A stretch of DNA of 32,000 nucleotides from Candidatus Heimdallarchaeota archaeon (GTDB lineage: Archaea > Asgardarchaeota > Heimdallarchaeia > JABLTI01): positions 60,001-92,000 of the forward strand of contig JAUWKS010000001.1 in the NCBI GenBank assembly GCA_030614005.1. The letters run 5' to 3'. The number at the start of each line of letters is the position of its first letter. The first letter of the stretch is position 1. Below the pieces are notes generated by a model. The model was not told where the DNA came from. It was given only the letters and a program-made list of their open reading frames with translations, and ran no database searches. This document shows, in pieces, positions 9,481-18,708 of the stretch. Made by a program: the position numbers and the translations under genes.

Positions 9481-12400
9481 TTATGATTCCAATGCTTTTT
9501 CGACCACTTCTTCACAAGAAATTTCTCTTAAAACTTCCTTGATGATGTCTGGAGGAATTTCTAGTTTAGTAGCAATCTTCATTGGGTCAAACATTGGATC
9601 TTTCTTTCGTTCTTTTTTGGCTATAAGAGAAATCTCTGCTTTCAATCGTTCGATAGAGAAGAAAATTGTTTGAGTGTTATTTAACACTGACATATAAAAT
9701 GATGATTTGAATTCCCTTCGGATAATAGATGCTGCATCATTTGGTTGAATTTGGAACTCTTTTACAAGATTATCGACTTCAATCCGACCCCAGAGTTCGT
9801 ATTCGGAATAAAAGTATTCCCTGATGATTTTGATCTTTTGTTGAGAAATAAAAGCATCTTTGTTTATTAAATGACCAGAAATTTTTCGTCTATTGATCAA
9901 ACTTTGGATAAGATAGTCTGATAATGGTAATGAGCGATCAGTTGTTGAGAATATTGTTCTATCAAACAATCCCTTTAGTTTGAGATCATAAACAATTCTA
10001 TTTCTTATTGAATTCATGATTCTCCTAATTCTTCCGTGTGAAACATACGGTAGAGCGGCAATAACATTCCAAGCTTCGTCCACATCTGATTTGTTAATTA
10101 ACGTGAGCGTCTTTGCGATACTTTTCAAGAACTTTGACTTTTTCAGTTCTGTAAGTTCCATTACCCGGAGGAAAATGGTTTCCAATGAATCCATGTCACA
10201 GCTTGCCATTCTATTAACTGCAATCTTAGTAAGCAATTCTGTAATTATTGGTTCAATGTTCTTTTTTGTAGTAACTATTCGAATATATTTCAACAATGCA
10301 TTGTCATAAGCATTTGCTGCTTCTTTAACAGCTCCAATATCTTCCAGCGTTTTTCCAGCAAGGGTAATAAATTTGAAAGTTAAATTAGGAGGAAATCGTG
10401 GTTGATCAATAAAGGCTATTCCTCTGTTGAAACATTTAGTAGCAATATCTTGTGCTTTGGGATAAGTTTTCCTGCGAATCGCAGAGTCAGCTGCAATTTG
10501 ATAGCATTTGTAGGCTATTGTTACATCTGCATCCCATTCACGCGTTTGGAAAATTGTGCTTATCAGTCTGCTTGAGCTTTCTTCATCTTTCGCTTGATCA
10601 AACGCTTCGACCGCTATTTCATAGAAACTCATTGCTTCTTGAATTTTCCCATCCCGTATGACCTTGTCACCAGAATTCAAAGCAAACATACCAATGTTTC
10701 TTAATTCAGCTTCTATTCCTAATTCACTGTTTAGTTTAACTGCCGCTTCTGCAAAAGCCATAGATTCATGGTATTTTTTCTTCTGGAAAAGTTCATTTGC
10801 AATTTTGAAAACCGACTCCGCATAATGAATTGCTTTATTTCTATTTGCTAAATCGATTAATGTAACACCAACATGCCTTAATTTAAATGAAGCATCCTTG
10901 TTCCCTTTTCGGAGATATTTCTGCTCATTCTTTTCTACATCGGTTAATACTTTTTCGAGATGTGCTTCATTTCTTGAGAGAGCCAATATCCGAAATAATT
11001 GTTCTACAATTTTCTTTCCTATTGAATAATTATGATCACTTTTGGTTAATTTCTCACCTAGAGAGGTTAACGTTTCAATATAAATACCAATTTTTTCGTA
11101 TGCCACCATAGCTTTGTTTGAATTTGGTACTTCGAAAGCCTCAAGACCATCAATAATATCTTCAAGAGTAGAGAGAGCCGTTCGAGGGTTTTCAGTGAAT
11201 AACTGTTTGGCAAAATCTAGCAATGCTAGTGTTGCTGTTTCCATTAATAAATCACTTTGTGTTCTAATGGAAATATCTCGAGCGGTTAACAATGCCTCAT
11301 ATCCTCTTATTGAATGGAAGTTATTAATGAGATCTTTTGATCCAAGTTTAGCGAATTCAAAACCAACTTTTTCGATGTACTCAATACTATTATTTTCCAA
11401 AAACATTTGATAGCTATAACCAAGCATACGATAACTAACATCTAAAGGTGTTTCTGGACTGAATTTCGAAATTTGTTCAAAACATTCATCACCAATCTGT
11501 AAAAATAACTCTGGTATTTGTTCCTCGATAGCGATTTTCACAGCGAAATCTAAGTAGAAGTAACCAAGTGGTGAATTATTAGTCACGATATCTGCCTTTG
11601 CTCGTTTTATCAATATTGAAACTAATTGCGTAATCTTATCTGGATTATTCGTTTTCTTGAAGAATTGCAAACCTTCTCTAATAACTTTCCCAATCATATT
11701 CCATTCTGCAACAATTGTTGCTTTGAGAGCTTCAATGTATGTATCAGCGACTTTTTCTTGCATTAATTCAGTTGCAATCGGATTGTTTGTTATTAGTTCT
11801 AATACCTTTGCCCCTGCAAGAGAGTGTTTGTTTCTGATAGTTTCTAGGGCTAGAATAAGACTTAAATTAATTATTTTTGTGTTTTCCTCAGGATTTGGGC
11901 TACTCTTTGCTAAATCAAATGCTCTGTTTAAGAAGAAAATTCCAATTGATGATTTTCTGTTTGGGAGATTTTTTCTTGAAGCATTCAAATAAATAGTAAT
12001 TATCGATGCAAGTAAATCAAATTGTCCTATACGTTCAACTAGAATTCTACCACGTTCTAGAATATGTACTGCTTTGGTTAATTCATTCTGTTCCATAAGT
12101 TTGCGTGCAGTTTCAATTGATTGTTTTGTGGTTACAGTTGCAGAATCGGGATTGTTATCTTGCAGATAGTAATCAACTGCAGATTCAGTATATTTAATTG
12201 AGGCTTCAATTTTCCCGGCACTATAGGACATTGCAGAAACGATGGAGCAAATATCTCCTGCACGTGTGAATGCTTTTGCACTTTCAAAAAGTCGAACGGC
12301 CATTATATAGATCTCTATAGCCAAGGAAGTATTACTGTTTGTTGTTTCAGCTCCTTTTTTATATGCAATCTCACCTAACTCAATACAGCCAACAATATTT

Positions 12401-16527: not shown

Positions 16528-18708
16528 TTAAAATGATGTTTCAGGGGGAGGAGGTAATGGTGTCAACATTCCATTTTCAAGATATTTGATTAATACTTTC
16601 AAGACATCTTCTTTTGGGATATTTATTTGTCCTTGTTGATAAATAACATCAATAAGTTCTGTAACATAAAATACTTCATCATCGGTAGTCTTCAAGAAGT
16701 CAGTATAAGCTTTTGCAATCATTTTCTCGTGTTGTGAAACTGCAGTAAGTCTCATTCTTTTTACATCTATTTTCAATGGATAGAGATACTCTATTCGAAG
16801 ATGCTTTTCCAAAATATCAGTTGAACCTGAAAAAATAGAGATGAAACCATTGAATGTTTCCAATTCATCAGCATACTTTTTCTCAAATTCCTTCATAAAA
16901 ATGGTGATTCTTTGCTTCAGTGCTGGACCTAATTTTTCACCTACTAGCAGAGCAGCTTTAGATTTATGACCTTCATATATTATAATCCAAAATCCTTCTC
17001 TACCAATTTCACTGAACACACCATATCTTTTTTCAGTTTCTCCAGCCATTTCTTCAGTAAATGTTCCTACCGCACTTAAGAAACCACTTGTTAAAGAAAC
17101 ATCGATTTCTTTACCAAAACTTTGACTAAAGAGTGGGACTCCAGAATATGAATGAATGAGAATTACGTGTTTTATTTTTAAAATGTCATTGAAAAATTCT
17201 GCTCCAGCATCTAAATCAGTTTCAAGATCTAAGGGAATAAAATACTCCTCTTCTGTTTCCTCGTAAACTTCTTTTTCTTCTTGCCATTCAAGCTCTTGTG
17301 AATCTCCGAGTCCTGCTAATGAATTGCCAACTTTTGATTTAATTTTTTCAATATCAGTCTGCTGTTCTTGGCTTGTCATTCCAGGTTGAGCGGCATATGG
17401 TTGATATGAAGCAGCATCATATGGAGTTCCAATAGGCTCATATGGACTGCCATGAGTTTGTGGTTGAATTGTCTTTTTCGGTTTTGGTTTTGGTTTTGTT
17501 TTTTGTTTATTAACAGGAGCAATATACTGTCTACAGCTATAGCAATAATATCGTCGATATTGTTCTATAAATCGCACTTGGGATTGACAATTTGGACAAT
17601 AGGCATCACTTGTATCAGGTTGCTGAGATTCTCCAGAGGGTTGACCAACCATTTTTTGTCTTGCTAGTTCATTTCCACCATATGGAATGAGATCAGCATT
17701 TGGTTTTTCTTTACCCTTATCTCTAACCATATTGAATGCAATTATCCTTCTTTTATCTATAGAGAAAACCAAATCATTCATCCGGTTTCCATTTAAATCG
17801 CCTACTTTTAGATCCGAGATATTACCGTATCCGTCATAACTCTCGATTGTATTTGAACGCAAGATGTGAAACATTCCTTTGGAAGTTCCAACAACAATCT
17901 CTAATTGTCGATCATTGTCAACATCGGAAACTGTTCCGCTAGTAATTATTCCTTCAAAATTGTGGACAGACATTAAGCTACTTCGTTTGAAAATGCTTAA
18001 TCTTCCTGAATATTCCCCAACCATCACTTCAGTTATACCATCTCGGTCAAAATCACCGGCAAAGCAAAAGCTTGGTTCAGTTTCGACTCGAAATTCACCT
18101 ACTAAATCAAATTTCTGAAGTTGAGGTCGAAATTCAATTTCTTTAAATATTCCATCTTTAGCTGCAGCAATAAAACCAACTTGTCCGTTGCCATTGAAAT
18201 CACCTGTCACCATTTGAGTGACCTCAGTGGAGAAAATTCTGCCAAGAGAGAATCCTCTAATTTGATTCCACCTTTGCTTTTTTCCTGGGATTCTTTCAAC
18301 CATTACAACTTCGCCGTTTTGACATCCAACAACTATTTCAGAAAGTTTATTTCCATTTAAATCTCCAGGAGCAGAGCTCATAATACCTGAAGGTAAGCGG
18401 ATGCCATCTTTGATATCTTTAGTAAAGAATGGTTTTCCATTTCGAGCATTTATTCGGATTACGCCCTTATAATCTCCAGTTACAAGTTCAAAACTACGAT
18501 CTAAACTTGTTTGTGCCATACAAATTGCATTGACTTTTTCATTTATTCTAACAATATTGTTAGATAATTGCTTGGGATGGATAACGCTAATATCTGTCCC
18601 ATTTTTCACTATTCGTGCAACAAGTATTTCAGAAATACCATCTGCATTAAAATCATGTGTAATTAGTGAATGGAAATTTTCTGTTACTAATTCAAGTGTC
18701 TGTTGCAC
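16528..18708 (-). CDS. FG-GAP/VCBS beta-propeller + Zn ribbon + longin-like domain + winged-helix-like tail (726 aa)
   Basis: Repeats (G/S/H)D(F/L/V)(N/D)xDG/NGxxE(I/V)xV at HDFNADGISEIL, GDLNGNKLSEIVVG, GDFNGNGQVG, GDFDRDGITEVMVG, SDVDNDRQLEIVVG and GDLNGNRMNDLV. CPNC..CYSC knuckles. Longin-type segment VILIHSYSGVPLFSQSF..LTSGFLSAVGTFTEEM. GTG start with AGGA upstream. Confidence 0.85.
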   Translation of the reverse strand: MQQTLELVTENFHSLITHDFNADGISEILVARIVKNGTDISVIHPKQLSNNIVRINEKVNAICMAQTSLDRSFELVTGDYKGVIRINARNGKPFFTKDIKDGIRLPSGIMSSAPGDLNGNKLSEIVVGCQNGEVVMVERIPGKKQRWNQIRGFSLGRIFSTEVTQMVTGDFNGNGQVGFIAAAKDGIFKEIEFRPQLQKFDLVGEFRVETEPSFCFAGDFDRDGITEVMVGEYSGRLSIFKRSSLMSVHNFEGIITSGTVSDVDNDRQLEIVVGTSKGMFHILRSNTIESYDGYGNISDLKVGDLNGNRMNDLVFSIDKRRIIAFNMVRDKGKEKPNADLIPYGGNELARQKMVGQPSGESQQPDTSDAYCPNCQSQVRFIEQYRRYYCYSCRQYIAPVNKQKTKPKPKPKKTIQPQTHGSPYEPIGTPYDAASYQPYAAQPGMTSQEQQTDIEKIKSKVGNSLAGLGDSQELEWQEEKEVYEETEEEYFIPLDLETDLDAGAEFFNDILKIKHVILIHSYSGVPLFSQSFGKEIDVSLTSGFLSAVGTFTEEMAGETEKRYGVFSEIGREGFWIIIYEGHKSKAALLVGEKLGPALKQRITIFMKEFEKKYADELETFNGFISIFSGSTDILEKHLRIEYLYPLKIDVKRMRLTAVSQHEKMIAKAYTDFLKTTDDEVFYVTELIDVIYQQGQINIPKEDVLKVLIKYLENGMLTPLPPPPETSF

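Follow-up and report, generated by a model that had tools for sequence, protein, structure and literature searches.

A beta-propeller paired with an alpha-solenoid is characteristic of the protocoatomers (COPI/COPII, clathrin, Nup, HOPS/CORVET), while small GTPases are served by roadblock/longin platforms in Ragulator-Rag and MglB-MglA. Cytoplasmic propellers of FG-GAP type are found in the eukaryotic proteins ITFG2, of KICSTOR, and BBS2/BBS7, where in the latter the propeller is followed by coiled-coil, GAE and platform domains. Helical hairpins of ~41 aa build alpha/gamma-SNAP (Sec17), and helical-repeat arrays with a winged-helix cap build the PCI scaffolds Rpn6, CSN2 and eIF3c. The initial annotation of a 32,000-nucleotide stretch of Candidatus Heimdallarchaeota DNA (the window) had proposed two neighbouring genes, here P0001 and P0002, as a candidate module of the coat or tether kind. 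We tentatively read the pair instead as a lineage-specific cytoplasmic scaffold and adaptor linked to longin/GTPase signalling, the most likely of the explanations considered (probability of about 0.4).

The two ORFs are adjacent and co-oriented on the minus strand, separated by 129 bp as previously described, and contain the following features, given in window coordinates:

9481..16398, minus strand: gene of the 2305-aa alpha-solenoid P0002 (ORF)
9487..10038, minus strand: non-repeat C-terminus of P0002, aa 2121-2304, with two winged-helix-like units and a terminal three-helix unit (AF2 model)
10054..16398, minus strand: ~50 helical hairpins of SNAP/TPR type, aa 1-2115 (Pfam SNAP/TPR, ~41-aa period, partial model)
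16399..16527, minus strand: 129-bp AT-rich spacer, with a TATA-like element at 16441-16448 and GGGG 10-13 nt before the P0002 ATG
16528..18708, minus strand: gene of P0001, a 726-aa soluble propeller/zinc-ribbon/linker/longin-WH protein (ORF, GTG start)
16543-16554, minus strand: PPPP tail of P0001, aa 719-722 (P719-P722 invariant among orthologues)
16558..16734, minus strand: winged helix closing the module, aa 659-717 (DSSP of the AF2 model)
16780..17181, minus strand: longin domain, aa 510-643 (AF2 model, VIA-align, Foldseek)
17227..17508, minus strand: poorly conserved linker, aa 401-494, K/P- and P/Q/Y-rich, then acidic (sequence and conservation)
17509..17616, minus strand: C4 zinc ribbon, aa 365-400 (four conserved Cys; Pfam Zn_ribbon_19 sub-threshold)
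17719..18708, minus strand: predicted seven-blade FG-GAP propeller of an ITFG2/BBS2-like subtype, aa 1-330 (Pfam, blade motifs, conservation)

The possible TATA box noted earlier corresponds to the minus-strand element tttatatt (16448-16441), 47 nt upstream of the P0002 ATG. In orthologous loci the spacer measures 125-136 bp; the element is only partially conserved among them, less well than a block just past the stop of the upstream gene. The pair is flanked on one side by thioredoxin, ODP, desulfoferrodoxin and rubrerythrin genes, and on the other by an MFS gene and two ABC genes.

From N- to C-terminus, P0001 comprises the FG-GAP propeller, the C4 zinc ribbon, a disordered linker, and the longin domain with its winged helix. 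Its orthologues form 28 clusters at 57-100% identity, and the gene is under strong constraint, as seen in sequence identities of 57-89% between orthologues. The propeller recognized in the initial annotation is supported by Pfam FG-GAP_3 (49.2 bits, E 8.1e-13, cut-off 26.9) and FG-GAP (47.5 bits, E 1.5e-12, cut-off 22.1), which both pass, and by seven DxDxDG-like blade motifs near aa 19, 78, 115, 169, 218, 261 and 303; its column conservation in the orthologue alignment is 0.72-0.87. The zinc-ribbon cysteines (C371, C374, C389, C392) show no variation across 25 orthologues, with Pfam Zn_ribbon_19 (9.6e-5) below cut-off, and conservation drops to 0.46-0.63 in the linker, versus 0.8-0.9 in the parts on either side. 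Neither a signal peptide nor a TM helix was found in P0001, which indicates a soluble protein, and P0002 likewise has no TM segment, in line with what had been stated for both proteins.

The AF2 model of the C-terminal 232 aa of P0001 (pLDDT 89, pTM 0.85) displays the order beta-beta-alpha-beta-beta-beta-alpha-alpha followed by a winged helix, which DSSP assigns as H165-180, H188-197, H205-217 and E221-223 (model numbering). In VIA-align, model residues 16-148 match the Sec22b longin with a Z of 11.8 (121 aa, 3.0 Å), and Fuzzy, Asgard Roadblock3 and a Lokiarchaeal longin with Z values of 11.7, 11.5 and 11.4, while Foldseek retrieves AP2 sigma, LAMTOR and MglB, all with probabilities of 1.0. 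Because of these Z values and probabilities the label "longin-type", already given to this domain, holds. It is the best conserved part of P0001 (0.93-0.94). For the winged helix, the sequence search gave as its sole hint the DEP domain of DEPTOR, which is not significant (E 0.58).

This longin + winged-helix (longin-WH) module defines a large family restricted to Asgard archaea (647 cluster representatives at E≤1e-3), present in 270 of 300 Asgard genomes and with 29 matches in the host genome. A TM helix lies 10-64 aa upstream of the module in 46 of the 58 members checked, so that in these single-pass surface proteins the module forms the cytoplasmic tail, and the positive-inside rule is followed by 45 of these 46. 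Their outer domains include SBP_bac_5, TSP3, Big_1, MG2/MG4, FG-GAP and LVIVD, and the paralogues of P0001 within the host genome are type-I propeller proteins. P0001 is a rare soluble member of the family. It shares with the surface proteins, an uncurated group, a ~220-aa module at 22-37% identity, with conserved motifs and the same fold, but has no signal peptide or TM helix, and a cytoplasmic propeller, zinc ribbon and ~100-aa linker take the place of their extracellular part and membrane span. Since the module is mostly a tail of surface proteins, it argues for receptor/GTPase coupling more than for a role in coats. Its fold is common to the roadblock/longin platforms of Ragulator-Rag and MglB-MglA, and fusions to a Ras-type GTPase (Pfam Ras, 1e-50) or a HerA-type ATPase occur in a few members, the G-domain fusions being reminiscent of Rag GTPases, in which a G domain is combined with a roadblock domain. 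In contrast to these systems, longin-type genes are not enriched near Ras genes in the host genome, where 2-3 of the 29 matches lie within 5 kb and ~3 are expected.

P0002 is a solenoid of ~40-aa repeats, as had been recognized. It matches Pfam SNAP with 69.4 bits (cut-off 25, E 4.6e-19) over four stretches, and in addition TPR_12, TPR_2 and TPR_8; maxima in its hydrophobicity autocorrelation, at 21-24, 82 and 123 aa, correspond to hairpins of ~41 aa. The AF2 model of aa 1700-2305 consists of regular helix pairs and a C-terminus of strands and helices (model residues 422-605, pLDDT 90.8), for which column conservation is 0.76-0.86. The orthologues are 2302-2306 aa long with only 5-8 gap columns, and, with identities of 39-86%, this gene is under strong constraint as well.

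In the scaffold and adaptor that we propose, the longin-WH module of P0001 would have as its partner either a small GTPase or another longin-type module, by analogy with the longin/roadblock domains of TRAPP, Ragulator-Rag and MglB-MglA. Through this pairing the propeller, along with a solenoid that it binds, would be recruited to GTPase switches or receptor tails at the membrane, and the solenoid would act as a rigid platform for assembly. A physical contact between P0001 and P0002 is something we infer only from their conserved adjacency. In favour of the proposal are the domain architecture and folds, the longin-WH surface family with its Ras and HerA fusions, a conserved pair that outlasts local rearrangements, and a solenoid of strict length and conserved C-terminus. 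Against it are the collinear flanks, a gene insertion in one locus, the TATA-like element before the giant gene, a giant paralogue that has no such neighbour, a module that is phylum-wide next to a giant that is family-restricted, and the missing enrichment near Ras genes.

Most of these opposing points bear on an alternative that is also quite possible, namely that the two genes are neighbours with unrelated jobs, kept adjacent by genus-wide collinearity, with the solenoid working alongside different proteins, such as its own paralogue, and P0001 acting only in a longin-WH/GTPase network. The existence of the pair and its maintenance within the genus are confirmed: the genes are adjacent and co-oriented in 8/8 family genomes with both on one contig, and also in loci L001-L004 and L010, so that the pair is co-located wherever this could be assessed. 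The near-constant spacer argues against unrelated neighbours, as does the persistence of the pair where surrounding genes have changed (different upstream genes in L001, no MFS gene in L009). Both genes are furthermore limited to the same small clade: the propeller-specific part of P0001 does not extend beyond one genus, nor the giant beyond a single Asgard family of 12 genomes. However, the flanks are collinear across the same genomes and as conserved as the pair, and because the whole neighbourhood is collinear the synteny is weak evidence. In L001, the most divergent locus, an unrelated glyoxalase gene is inserted between the two genes, and the TATA-like element may provide a separate promoter for the giant gene. 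A full-length paralogue of the giant exists without a propeller-longin neighbour, and in the sister genus, at 75% completeness, the giant is present and the propeller orthologue was not found. Moreover, the giant cannot be the conserved partner of the longin-WH module, because the latter is phylum-wide and the former family-restricted.

A Rag-GTPase regulator of KICSTOR/GATOR type, in which an ITFG2-like propeller with a longin domain is docked on a giant scaffold that plays the part of SZT2, and controls a Rag/Arf-like GTPase, is unlikely. It has in its favour that, among PDB sequences, only human ITFG2 matches the propeller significantly (E 1.8e-8 over 72 aa with the orthologue profile, E 2e-4 with the single sequence), whereas the propeller of an own-genome paralogue matches PQQ/"Cake"-type propellers instead, that the GTPase regulators Fuzzy, LAMTOR and MglB have the longin fold, and that Ras-longin-WH fusions occur within the family. 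Nevertheless, the ITFG2 match spans two blades only, and Pfam Itfg2 fails, its 13.4 bits lying well under the 27 required. Neither protein matches SZT2, KPTN or NPRL in the PDB sequence and Foldseek lists, no KPTN, SZT2 or BBS partners were detected, no GTPase gene on the contig scores at E≤1e-5, and the lineage range is narrow.

The initial proposal of a trafficking or GTPase scaffold encoded side by side stands as regards the domains and their co-location, but not as regards proto-coat/tether homology. It is very improbable that the pair makes up a membrane coat or tether of a split protocoatomer kind that shares ancestry with COPI/COPII, clathrin, HOPS/CORVET or the BBSome. The combination of propeller and solenoid, the longin domain and the SNAP-type repeats are present, and the propeller does resemble those of the BBSome and KICSTOR, as had been suggested: sub-threshold Pfam hits place it closest to BBS2/BBS7/ITFG2, and these are also its nearest language-model clusters (0.90-0.92), all of them, like P0001, cytoplasmic FG-GAP-type propellers. 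The family thresholds are not reached, though, with BBS2_Mid at 23.6 bits and the BBS7 propeller at 19.4 bits, both under Pfam cut-offs of 27 bits; the BBS2_Mid signal is stronger in an extracellular paralogue; and in P0001 the propeller is followed by a zinc ribbon and longin-WH. What is shared with the protocoatomers is the generic pairing of folds, whereas here an FG-GAP propeller stands where coats have a WD40 one, propeller and solenoid are separate polypeptides, neither protein has a membrane-binding element and the phyletic range is that of one family of 12 genomes; the neighbourless giant paralogue also speaks against this homology. Searches with the solenoid (Foldseek, PDB sequence, VIA-align) gave matches to generic TPR, SNAP and PCI-like folds only, none of them a conspicuous match to a coat, adaptin, HOPS or BBS4/8 protein. 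Support for the coat/tether reading is generic only, and no result links the pair to the vesicle coats or tethers of eukaryotes in particular.

Equally hard to credit is a PCI-type assembly subunit, whose repeats and winged-helix end would nucleate a lid/CSN/eIF3-like horseshoe joined by the winged helix of P0001: although the best natural Foldseek matches of aa 1700-2305 are Rpn6, eIF3c/a and CSN2 (E 1e-5 to 1e-4, probability 1.0), with alignments to Rpn6, CSN2 and eIF3c that extend through the winged-helix part, and the nearest Atlas cluster has PCI in 19% of its members (score 0.80, a lead only), the TM-scores are only 0.2-0.36, such matches are expected from any repeat array with a winged-helix cap, Pfam PCI gives no match at E≤1, and the best PCI chain in VIA-align (Z 10.6) ranks below Sec17/SNAP. 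P0002 differs from the PCI scaffolds in its two winged-helix-like units, its additional three-helix end and the ~2100 repeat residues upstream.

The alignment of P0002 to Sec17/gamma-SNAP covers 265-274 of ~290 SNAP residues (rmsd 9-10 Å) with a Z of 13.0-13.4, a level that helical repeats attain by arrangement alone. The ~41-aa hairpins are common to both, but P0002 is ~8 times longer than SNAP and is found without an NSF/SNARE context. Repeat proteins of SNAP type occur commonly in archaea other than this one.

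The propeller-longin gene and the giant solenoid gene lie on contig C71 of an Asgard assembly (3.6 Mb, 90% complete), in a window of 33% G+C, at the following positions:

Window 16528-18708, minus strand: ORF with GTG start, 726-aa gene, encoding P0001 (propeller, zinc ribbon, linker and a C-terminal longin plus winged-helix module, longin-WH)
Window 9481-16398, minus strand: ORF, 2305-aa gene, encoding P0002 (the giant alpha-solenoid)

These ORFs bear out the arrangement proposed in the initial annotation, two co-oriented minus-strand genes with a gap of 129 bp, and, judged by sequence comparison, both are real genes under constraint. 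Orthologue clusters number 28 for P0001 (57-100% identity) and about 24 for P0002 (39-86%). A hydropathy scan shows neither TM helix nor signal peptide in either protein, in agreement with the earlier view that TM segments are absent, and both proteins are cytoplasmic. The spacer between the genes is AT-rich and contains a TATA-like element 47 nt 5' of the ATG of P0002, with a G-run at -13 to -10; the TATA box proposed earlier for this gene is recognizable and is only partly conserved among relatives. Conservation is higher in a block directly 3' of the stop codon of the 726-aa gene (window 16490-16527), which reads roughly CTACTAAAAACTTATGAGT in relatives and may act in termination or processing or belong to a promoter.

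The two genes are co-inherited. Within the family (12 genomes), an orthologue of the propeller protein is found in all 11 genomes of the genus, and the giant in 10 of these 11 as well as in the sister genus. In the one sister-genus genome (G252, 75% complete, with contig breaks inside the giant gene) no orthologue of the P0001 propeller was found, the best match having an E of 6.4e-7 to generic blades; given the gaps in that genome, this absence carries no weight. Outside the family, neither protein was found among 300 Asgard genomes with these queries, and this narrow distribution argues for a late, lineage-specific origin of the pair. The co-location is maintained in relatives: the genes are co-oriented, with the spacing of direct neighbours, in all eight genomes that carry both on one contig, and likewise in L002-L004 and L010, which are metagenomic loci. 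In L001, the most divergent locus (57% and 39% identity), a 185-aa Glyoxalase_4 gene on the same strand lies between the two (L001:12255-12812) and the upstream genes differ, while the downstream MFS gene is absent from one other locus; by these gene orders, the pair survives some local change. As evidence of a unit, the adjacency is weak, because the flanking genes are collinear too in most of these genomes (thioredoxin, ODP, desulfoferrodoxin and rubrerythrin on one side, MFS and ABC on the other). A complex prediction with the chains P0001 1-345 and P0001 495-726, and with P0002 1896-2305 as their partner, scored 0.32, against 0.29 with the propeller chain replaced and 0.00 with the partner replaced, a modelling result that speaks neither for nor against binding. 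We favour, with a probability of roughly 40%, the reading that P0001 and P0002 form a scaffold-adaptor pair. That they are neighbours only, with the collinear flanks on its side and the adjacency kept through local change on the other, is a tentative but serious alternative.

The flank at window 18968-21903 is an oxidative-stress cluster, divergent from the 726-aa gene and kept beside the pair in most relatives, which encodes a double thioredoxin-fold protein, an ODP-family metallo-beta-lactamase-fold protein, desulfoferrodoxin and rubrerythrin. Further along (window 24771-26587) there are two adjoining minus-strand ORFs of 440 and 165 aa without Pfam match.

The FG-GAP propeller ascribed to P0001 is well founded, since the Pfam families FG-GAP_3 (49.2 bits, cut-off 26.9) and FG-GAP (47.5 bits, cut-off 22.1) both pass the gathering score and seven DxDxDG-type blade motifs, counted from the sequence, lie within the first ~330 residues. 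It is followed by a zinc ribbon, whose four Cys are invariant in 25 orthologues (FYVE was ruled out, with E 0.055 and just four Cys), and by a weakly conserved linker of ~100 aa, the composition of which changes from K/P through P/Q/Y to acidic. In a search of all PDB sequences with a 25-orthologue propeller profile, the sole significant family was human ITFG2 of KICSTOR (E 1.8e-8; 2e-4 for the single sequence), matched over 72 aa in blades 5-6, and integrin, BBS and KPTN chains did not score. The extracellular propeller of a paralogue matched PQQ/'Cake'-type propellers instead. In language-model features, the eukaryotic clusters nearest to the propeller of a P0001 orthologue were BBS2, BBS7 and ITFG2 (0.90-0.92), with archaeal FG-GAP_3 clusters equally near. 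Pfam Itfg2 gave 13.4 bits over ~40 aa (cut-off 27), and BBS2_Mid, BBS2_N and the BBS7 propeller 23.6, 15.0 and 19.4 bits (cut-offs 27, 26.3 and 27); the BBS2_Mid signal is not specific to P0001, since an extracellular paralogue scores higher (2.2e-10). The likeness to ITFG2, BBS2 and BBS7 noted earlier is real at the level of the FG-GAP subtype, but with none of the Pfam cut-offs for these families reached it does not amount to family membership.

A KICSTOR-like assembly would be in keeping with this ITFG2-like match in P0001, but KPTN and SZT2 chains were absent both from the PDB sequence searches with A3 and A4 and from Foldseek's best 50 matches for the solenoid end, and we consider it improbable. 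A preprint (10.64898/2026.10.28.762692) mentions, with no further description, an Asgard-eukaryote structural cluster labelled 'BBS7/ITFG2' and a single propeller-solenoid cluster. The kinds of part are known, namely Asgard longin/roadblock multidomain proteins, FG-GAP propellers and SNAP/TPR solenoids; our literature searches found no account of a soluble FG-GAP-longin-WH protein beside a length-invariant 2305-aa solenoid.

P0002 had been described as a solenoid of ~40-aa repeats, and this description is confirmed. Its hydrophobicity autocorrelation indicates a helix every ~21-24 aa (harmonics at 82 and 123) and therefore about 50 hairpins of ~41 aa, while Pfam SNAP matches at 69.4 bits (cut-off 25) in four stretches, together with TPR families. 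The 17 full-length orthologues (39-86% identity) measure 2302-2306 aa, with only 5-8 gap columns in 2310, and conservation is highest at residues 751-900, 1051-1200 and 1900-2300. On this sequence comparison, such a fixed length over ~50 repeats is unusual for a repeat protein and, together with that of the paralogue described below, suggests a defined three-dimensional object. A PDB sequence search with the P0002 profile returned solely TPR proteins and alpha-SNAP, at E>=0.01. P0002 passes Pfam SNAP, but with 2305 aa versus ~290 for the SNAP (Sec17) family, and a profile E of just 0.056 for alpha-SNAP, SNAP orthology was ruled out and the match reflects the type of repeat. An MIT domain at residues 1917-1944 was likewise rejected (22 bits, cut-off 30).

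The model of P0002 residues 1700-2305 (pLDDT 90.8) consists of regular hairpins to about residue 2115, followed by two winged-helix-like units and a three-helix terminus. The best natural Foldseek matches of this region are the PCI proteins Rpn6, eIF3c/a and CSN2 (E 1e-5 to 1e-4, TM 0.2-0.36). In VIA-align, Sec17 and alpha/gamma-SNAP are the top natural proteins (Z 13.0-13.4, 265-274 aa, rmsd 9-10 Å) and the best PCI chain ranks below them (Z 10.6), both scores being within the range that helical repeats can attain from arrangement alone. The Pfam, Foldseek, VIA-align and PDB profile results thus describe P0002 as a SNAP/TPR-type array with a predicted PCI-like layout at its end. Membership in a PCI assembly would account for the repeat array and winged-helix layout shared with PCI scaffolds, but the TM values are low and Pfam PCI (PF01399) has no match to P0002 at E<=1, which leaves this reading with little credence.

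The protocoatomer homology put forward in the initial annotation is not supported. Protocoatomers have a WD40-type propeller followed by a solenoid, whereas the propeller here is of the FG-GAP type and the parts are encoded by two separate genes. AP-1/AP-3 adaptins and Vps35 reach a Z of about 11 against the last 606 aa of P0002, amid many generic repeat proteins, so that no coat match stands out, and neither the profile search nor the predicted structure of these 606 aa ties the solenoid specifically to coats, tethers, BBS4/8 or SZT2. Of the earlier interpretation, the domains and the co-location stand and the coat or tether homology lacks support; a coat, which the combination of propeller and solenoid had suggested, is very unlikely, and the pair is not to be presented as an ancestor of coats.

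A full-length paralogue of P0002 exists in the same genome and in every genome of the family:

L006:6903-13850 (own genome, contig C123), minus strand: paralogous giant, 2315 aa
L006:17308-19428: 706-aa orphan gene, near the paralogous giant

The paralogue is 19% identical to P0002 over 2077 aa (E 2e-47). Its conserved neighbourhood comprises genes for a galactokinase, a beta-CASP RNase and an Alg9-type glycosyltransferase, with no propeller-longin gene among them. The orphan starts with a small domain, continues with ~350 aa of low-complexity, extremely acidic sequence and ends in hydrophobic helices (membrane anchor), and its counterpart in L011 is a 731-aa gene. These 706-731-aa proteins were rejected as analogues of P0001, to which they are unrelated by BLASTP (hhalign probability 0.3).

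The C-terminal ~230 aa of P0001 have no Pfam match whatever, and the longin-WH alignment, used as a profile against the PDB, matched nothing but the DEPTOR DEP domain (E 0.58). The AF2 model of the module (pLDDT 89, pTM 0.85) is a beta-beta-alpha-beta-beta-beta-alpha-alpha sandwich joined by a short helical connector to a winged helix. By Foldseek it belongs to the longin/roadblock superfamily, with matches to AP2 sigma, LAMTOR, MglB and zeta-COP that all have probability 1.0, and in VIA-align it superposes on Sec22b (Z 11.8, 121 aa, 3.0 Å), Fuzzy (11.7), VAMP7 (11.5), Asgard Roadblock3 (11.5), the Lokiarchaeal longin 8yqg (11.4) and TRAPP Bet5/synbindin (11.3-10.7). The aligned span is model residues 16-149 for longins and only 13-120 for roadblocks. 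Because of these superfamily matches and the longer span with longins, the label 'longin-type' given to this domain is upheld.

An exhaustive phmmer search (E<=1e-3) yielded 647 cluster representatives related to the module, 51 of which were aligned (alignment A1). P0001 is a member of this longin-WH family, its ~220-aa module aligning with the conserved motifs; the invariant or near-invariant columns are G29, L45, G48-F49, A52, G86, F114-E115, G127, F132 and P150. The module occurs in 270 of the 300 Asgard genomes sampled, mostly in several copies, with 29 matches in the own genome. Of 58 members examined, 46 have a TM helix N-terminal to the module, at a distance of 10-64 residues (median 21), and 45 of these carry more positive charge on the module side, which places the module in the cytoplasm. 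The parts before the TM helix include a signal peptide and domains typical of extracellular proteins, namely SBP_bac_5, TSP3, Big_1, MG2/MG4, FG-GAP and LVIVD. The two closest paralogues of P0001 in its genome (946 and 900 aa) are type-I propeller proteins of this kind:

L007:5648-8488 (own genome, contig C10): type-I surface paralogue, FG-GAP/PQQ-type propeller
L008:606-3308 (own genome, contig C64): type-I surface paralogue, FG-GAP/PQQ-type propeller

Both consist of a signal peptide, propeller, TSP3 repeats, one TM helix, an acidic linker and a longin-WH tail. The gene on C10 has a gene for a 438-aa TPR protein directly upstream, and that contig carries two weaker longin-type matches a few kb further downstream. 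Neither P0001 nor the orthologue P0028 has a TM helix, and P0001 departs from the type-I layout, in which a signal peptide and an extracellular part are followed by a single TM helix right before the module. P0001 thus shares the module with a receptor-tail family, most members of which are TM-anchored, and is, on sequence grounds, one of its few representatives that lie entirely in the cytoplasm. The other exceptions are fusions to Ras-family G domains (Pfam Ras 1e-50) and to HerA/FtsK-type ATPases. The latter, a soluble architecture, recurs in other Asgard genomes (P0051, P0060, P0073, P0086, P0113 and P0146), with ~200 residues after the longin-WH part.

The Ras fusions give an indirect hint that the module may dimerise or dock a small GTPase or SNARE. 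In the own genome, however, longin-type genes lie no closer to Ras-family genes than chance predicts (29 and 40 matches, respectively; 2-3 within 5 kb and ~3 expected), which speaks against a simple model in which longin-type proteins act with GTPases encoded nearby. In the scaffold-adaptor reading, the longin-WH module would pair with another longin-type module or with a small GTPase, as in TRAPP, Ragulator-Rag and MglB-MglA, which could bring P0001 to receptor tails or GTPase switches. For the giant, the propeller and zinc ribbon would be the more plausible contact, because they are clade-specific like the giant, whereas the conserved partner of the module itself must be phylum-wide. There is only a slim chance that the two proteins form a stable cytoplasmic complex that is a true archaeal relative of the KICSTOR-GATOR-type or BBSome propeller/longin/giant-scaffold GTPase regulators and is recruited to the longin-WH tails of surface receptors, coupling outside signals to a small GTPase.

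Asgard archaea contain many small GTPases and longin/roadblock proteins. As a soluble member of the receptor-tail family that has a propeller of the ITFG2/BBS2 subtype and is co-inherited with a fixed-length scaffold of 2305 residues, P0001 is an expressible, concrete test case for how such modules assemble and for whether large cytoplasmic scaffolds of this type predate eukaryotes. Two short features of P0001 could be candidate linear binding motifs, as judged from their conservation: a PPPP run at the extreme C-terminus (residues 719-722, window 16543-16554), invariant in 25 orthologues, and several conserved P-Y dipeptides within the otherwise variable linker (window 17227-17508).
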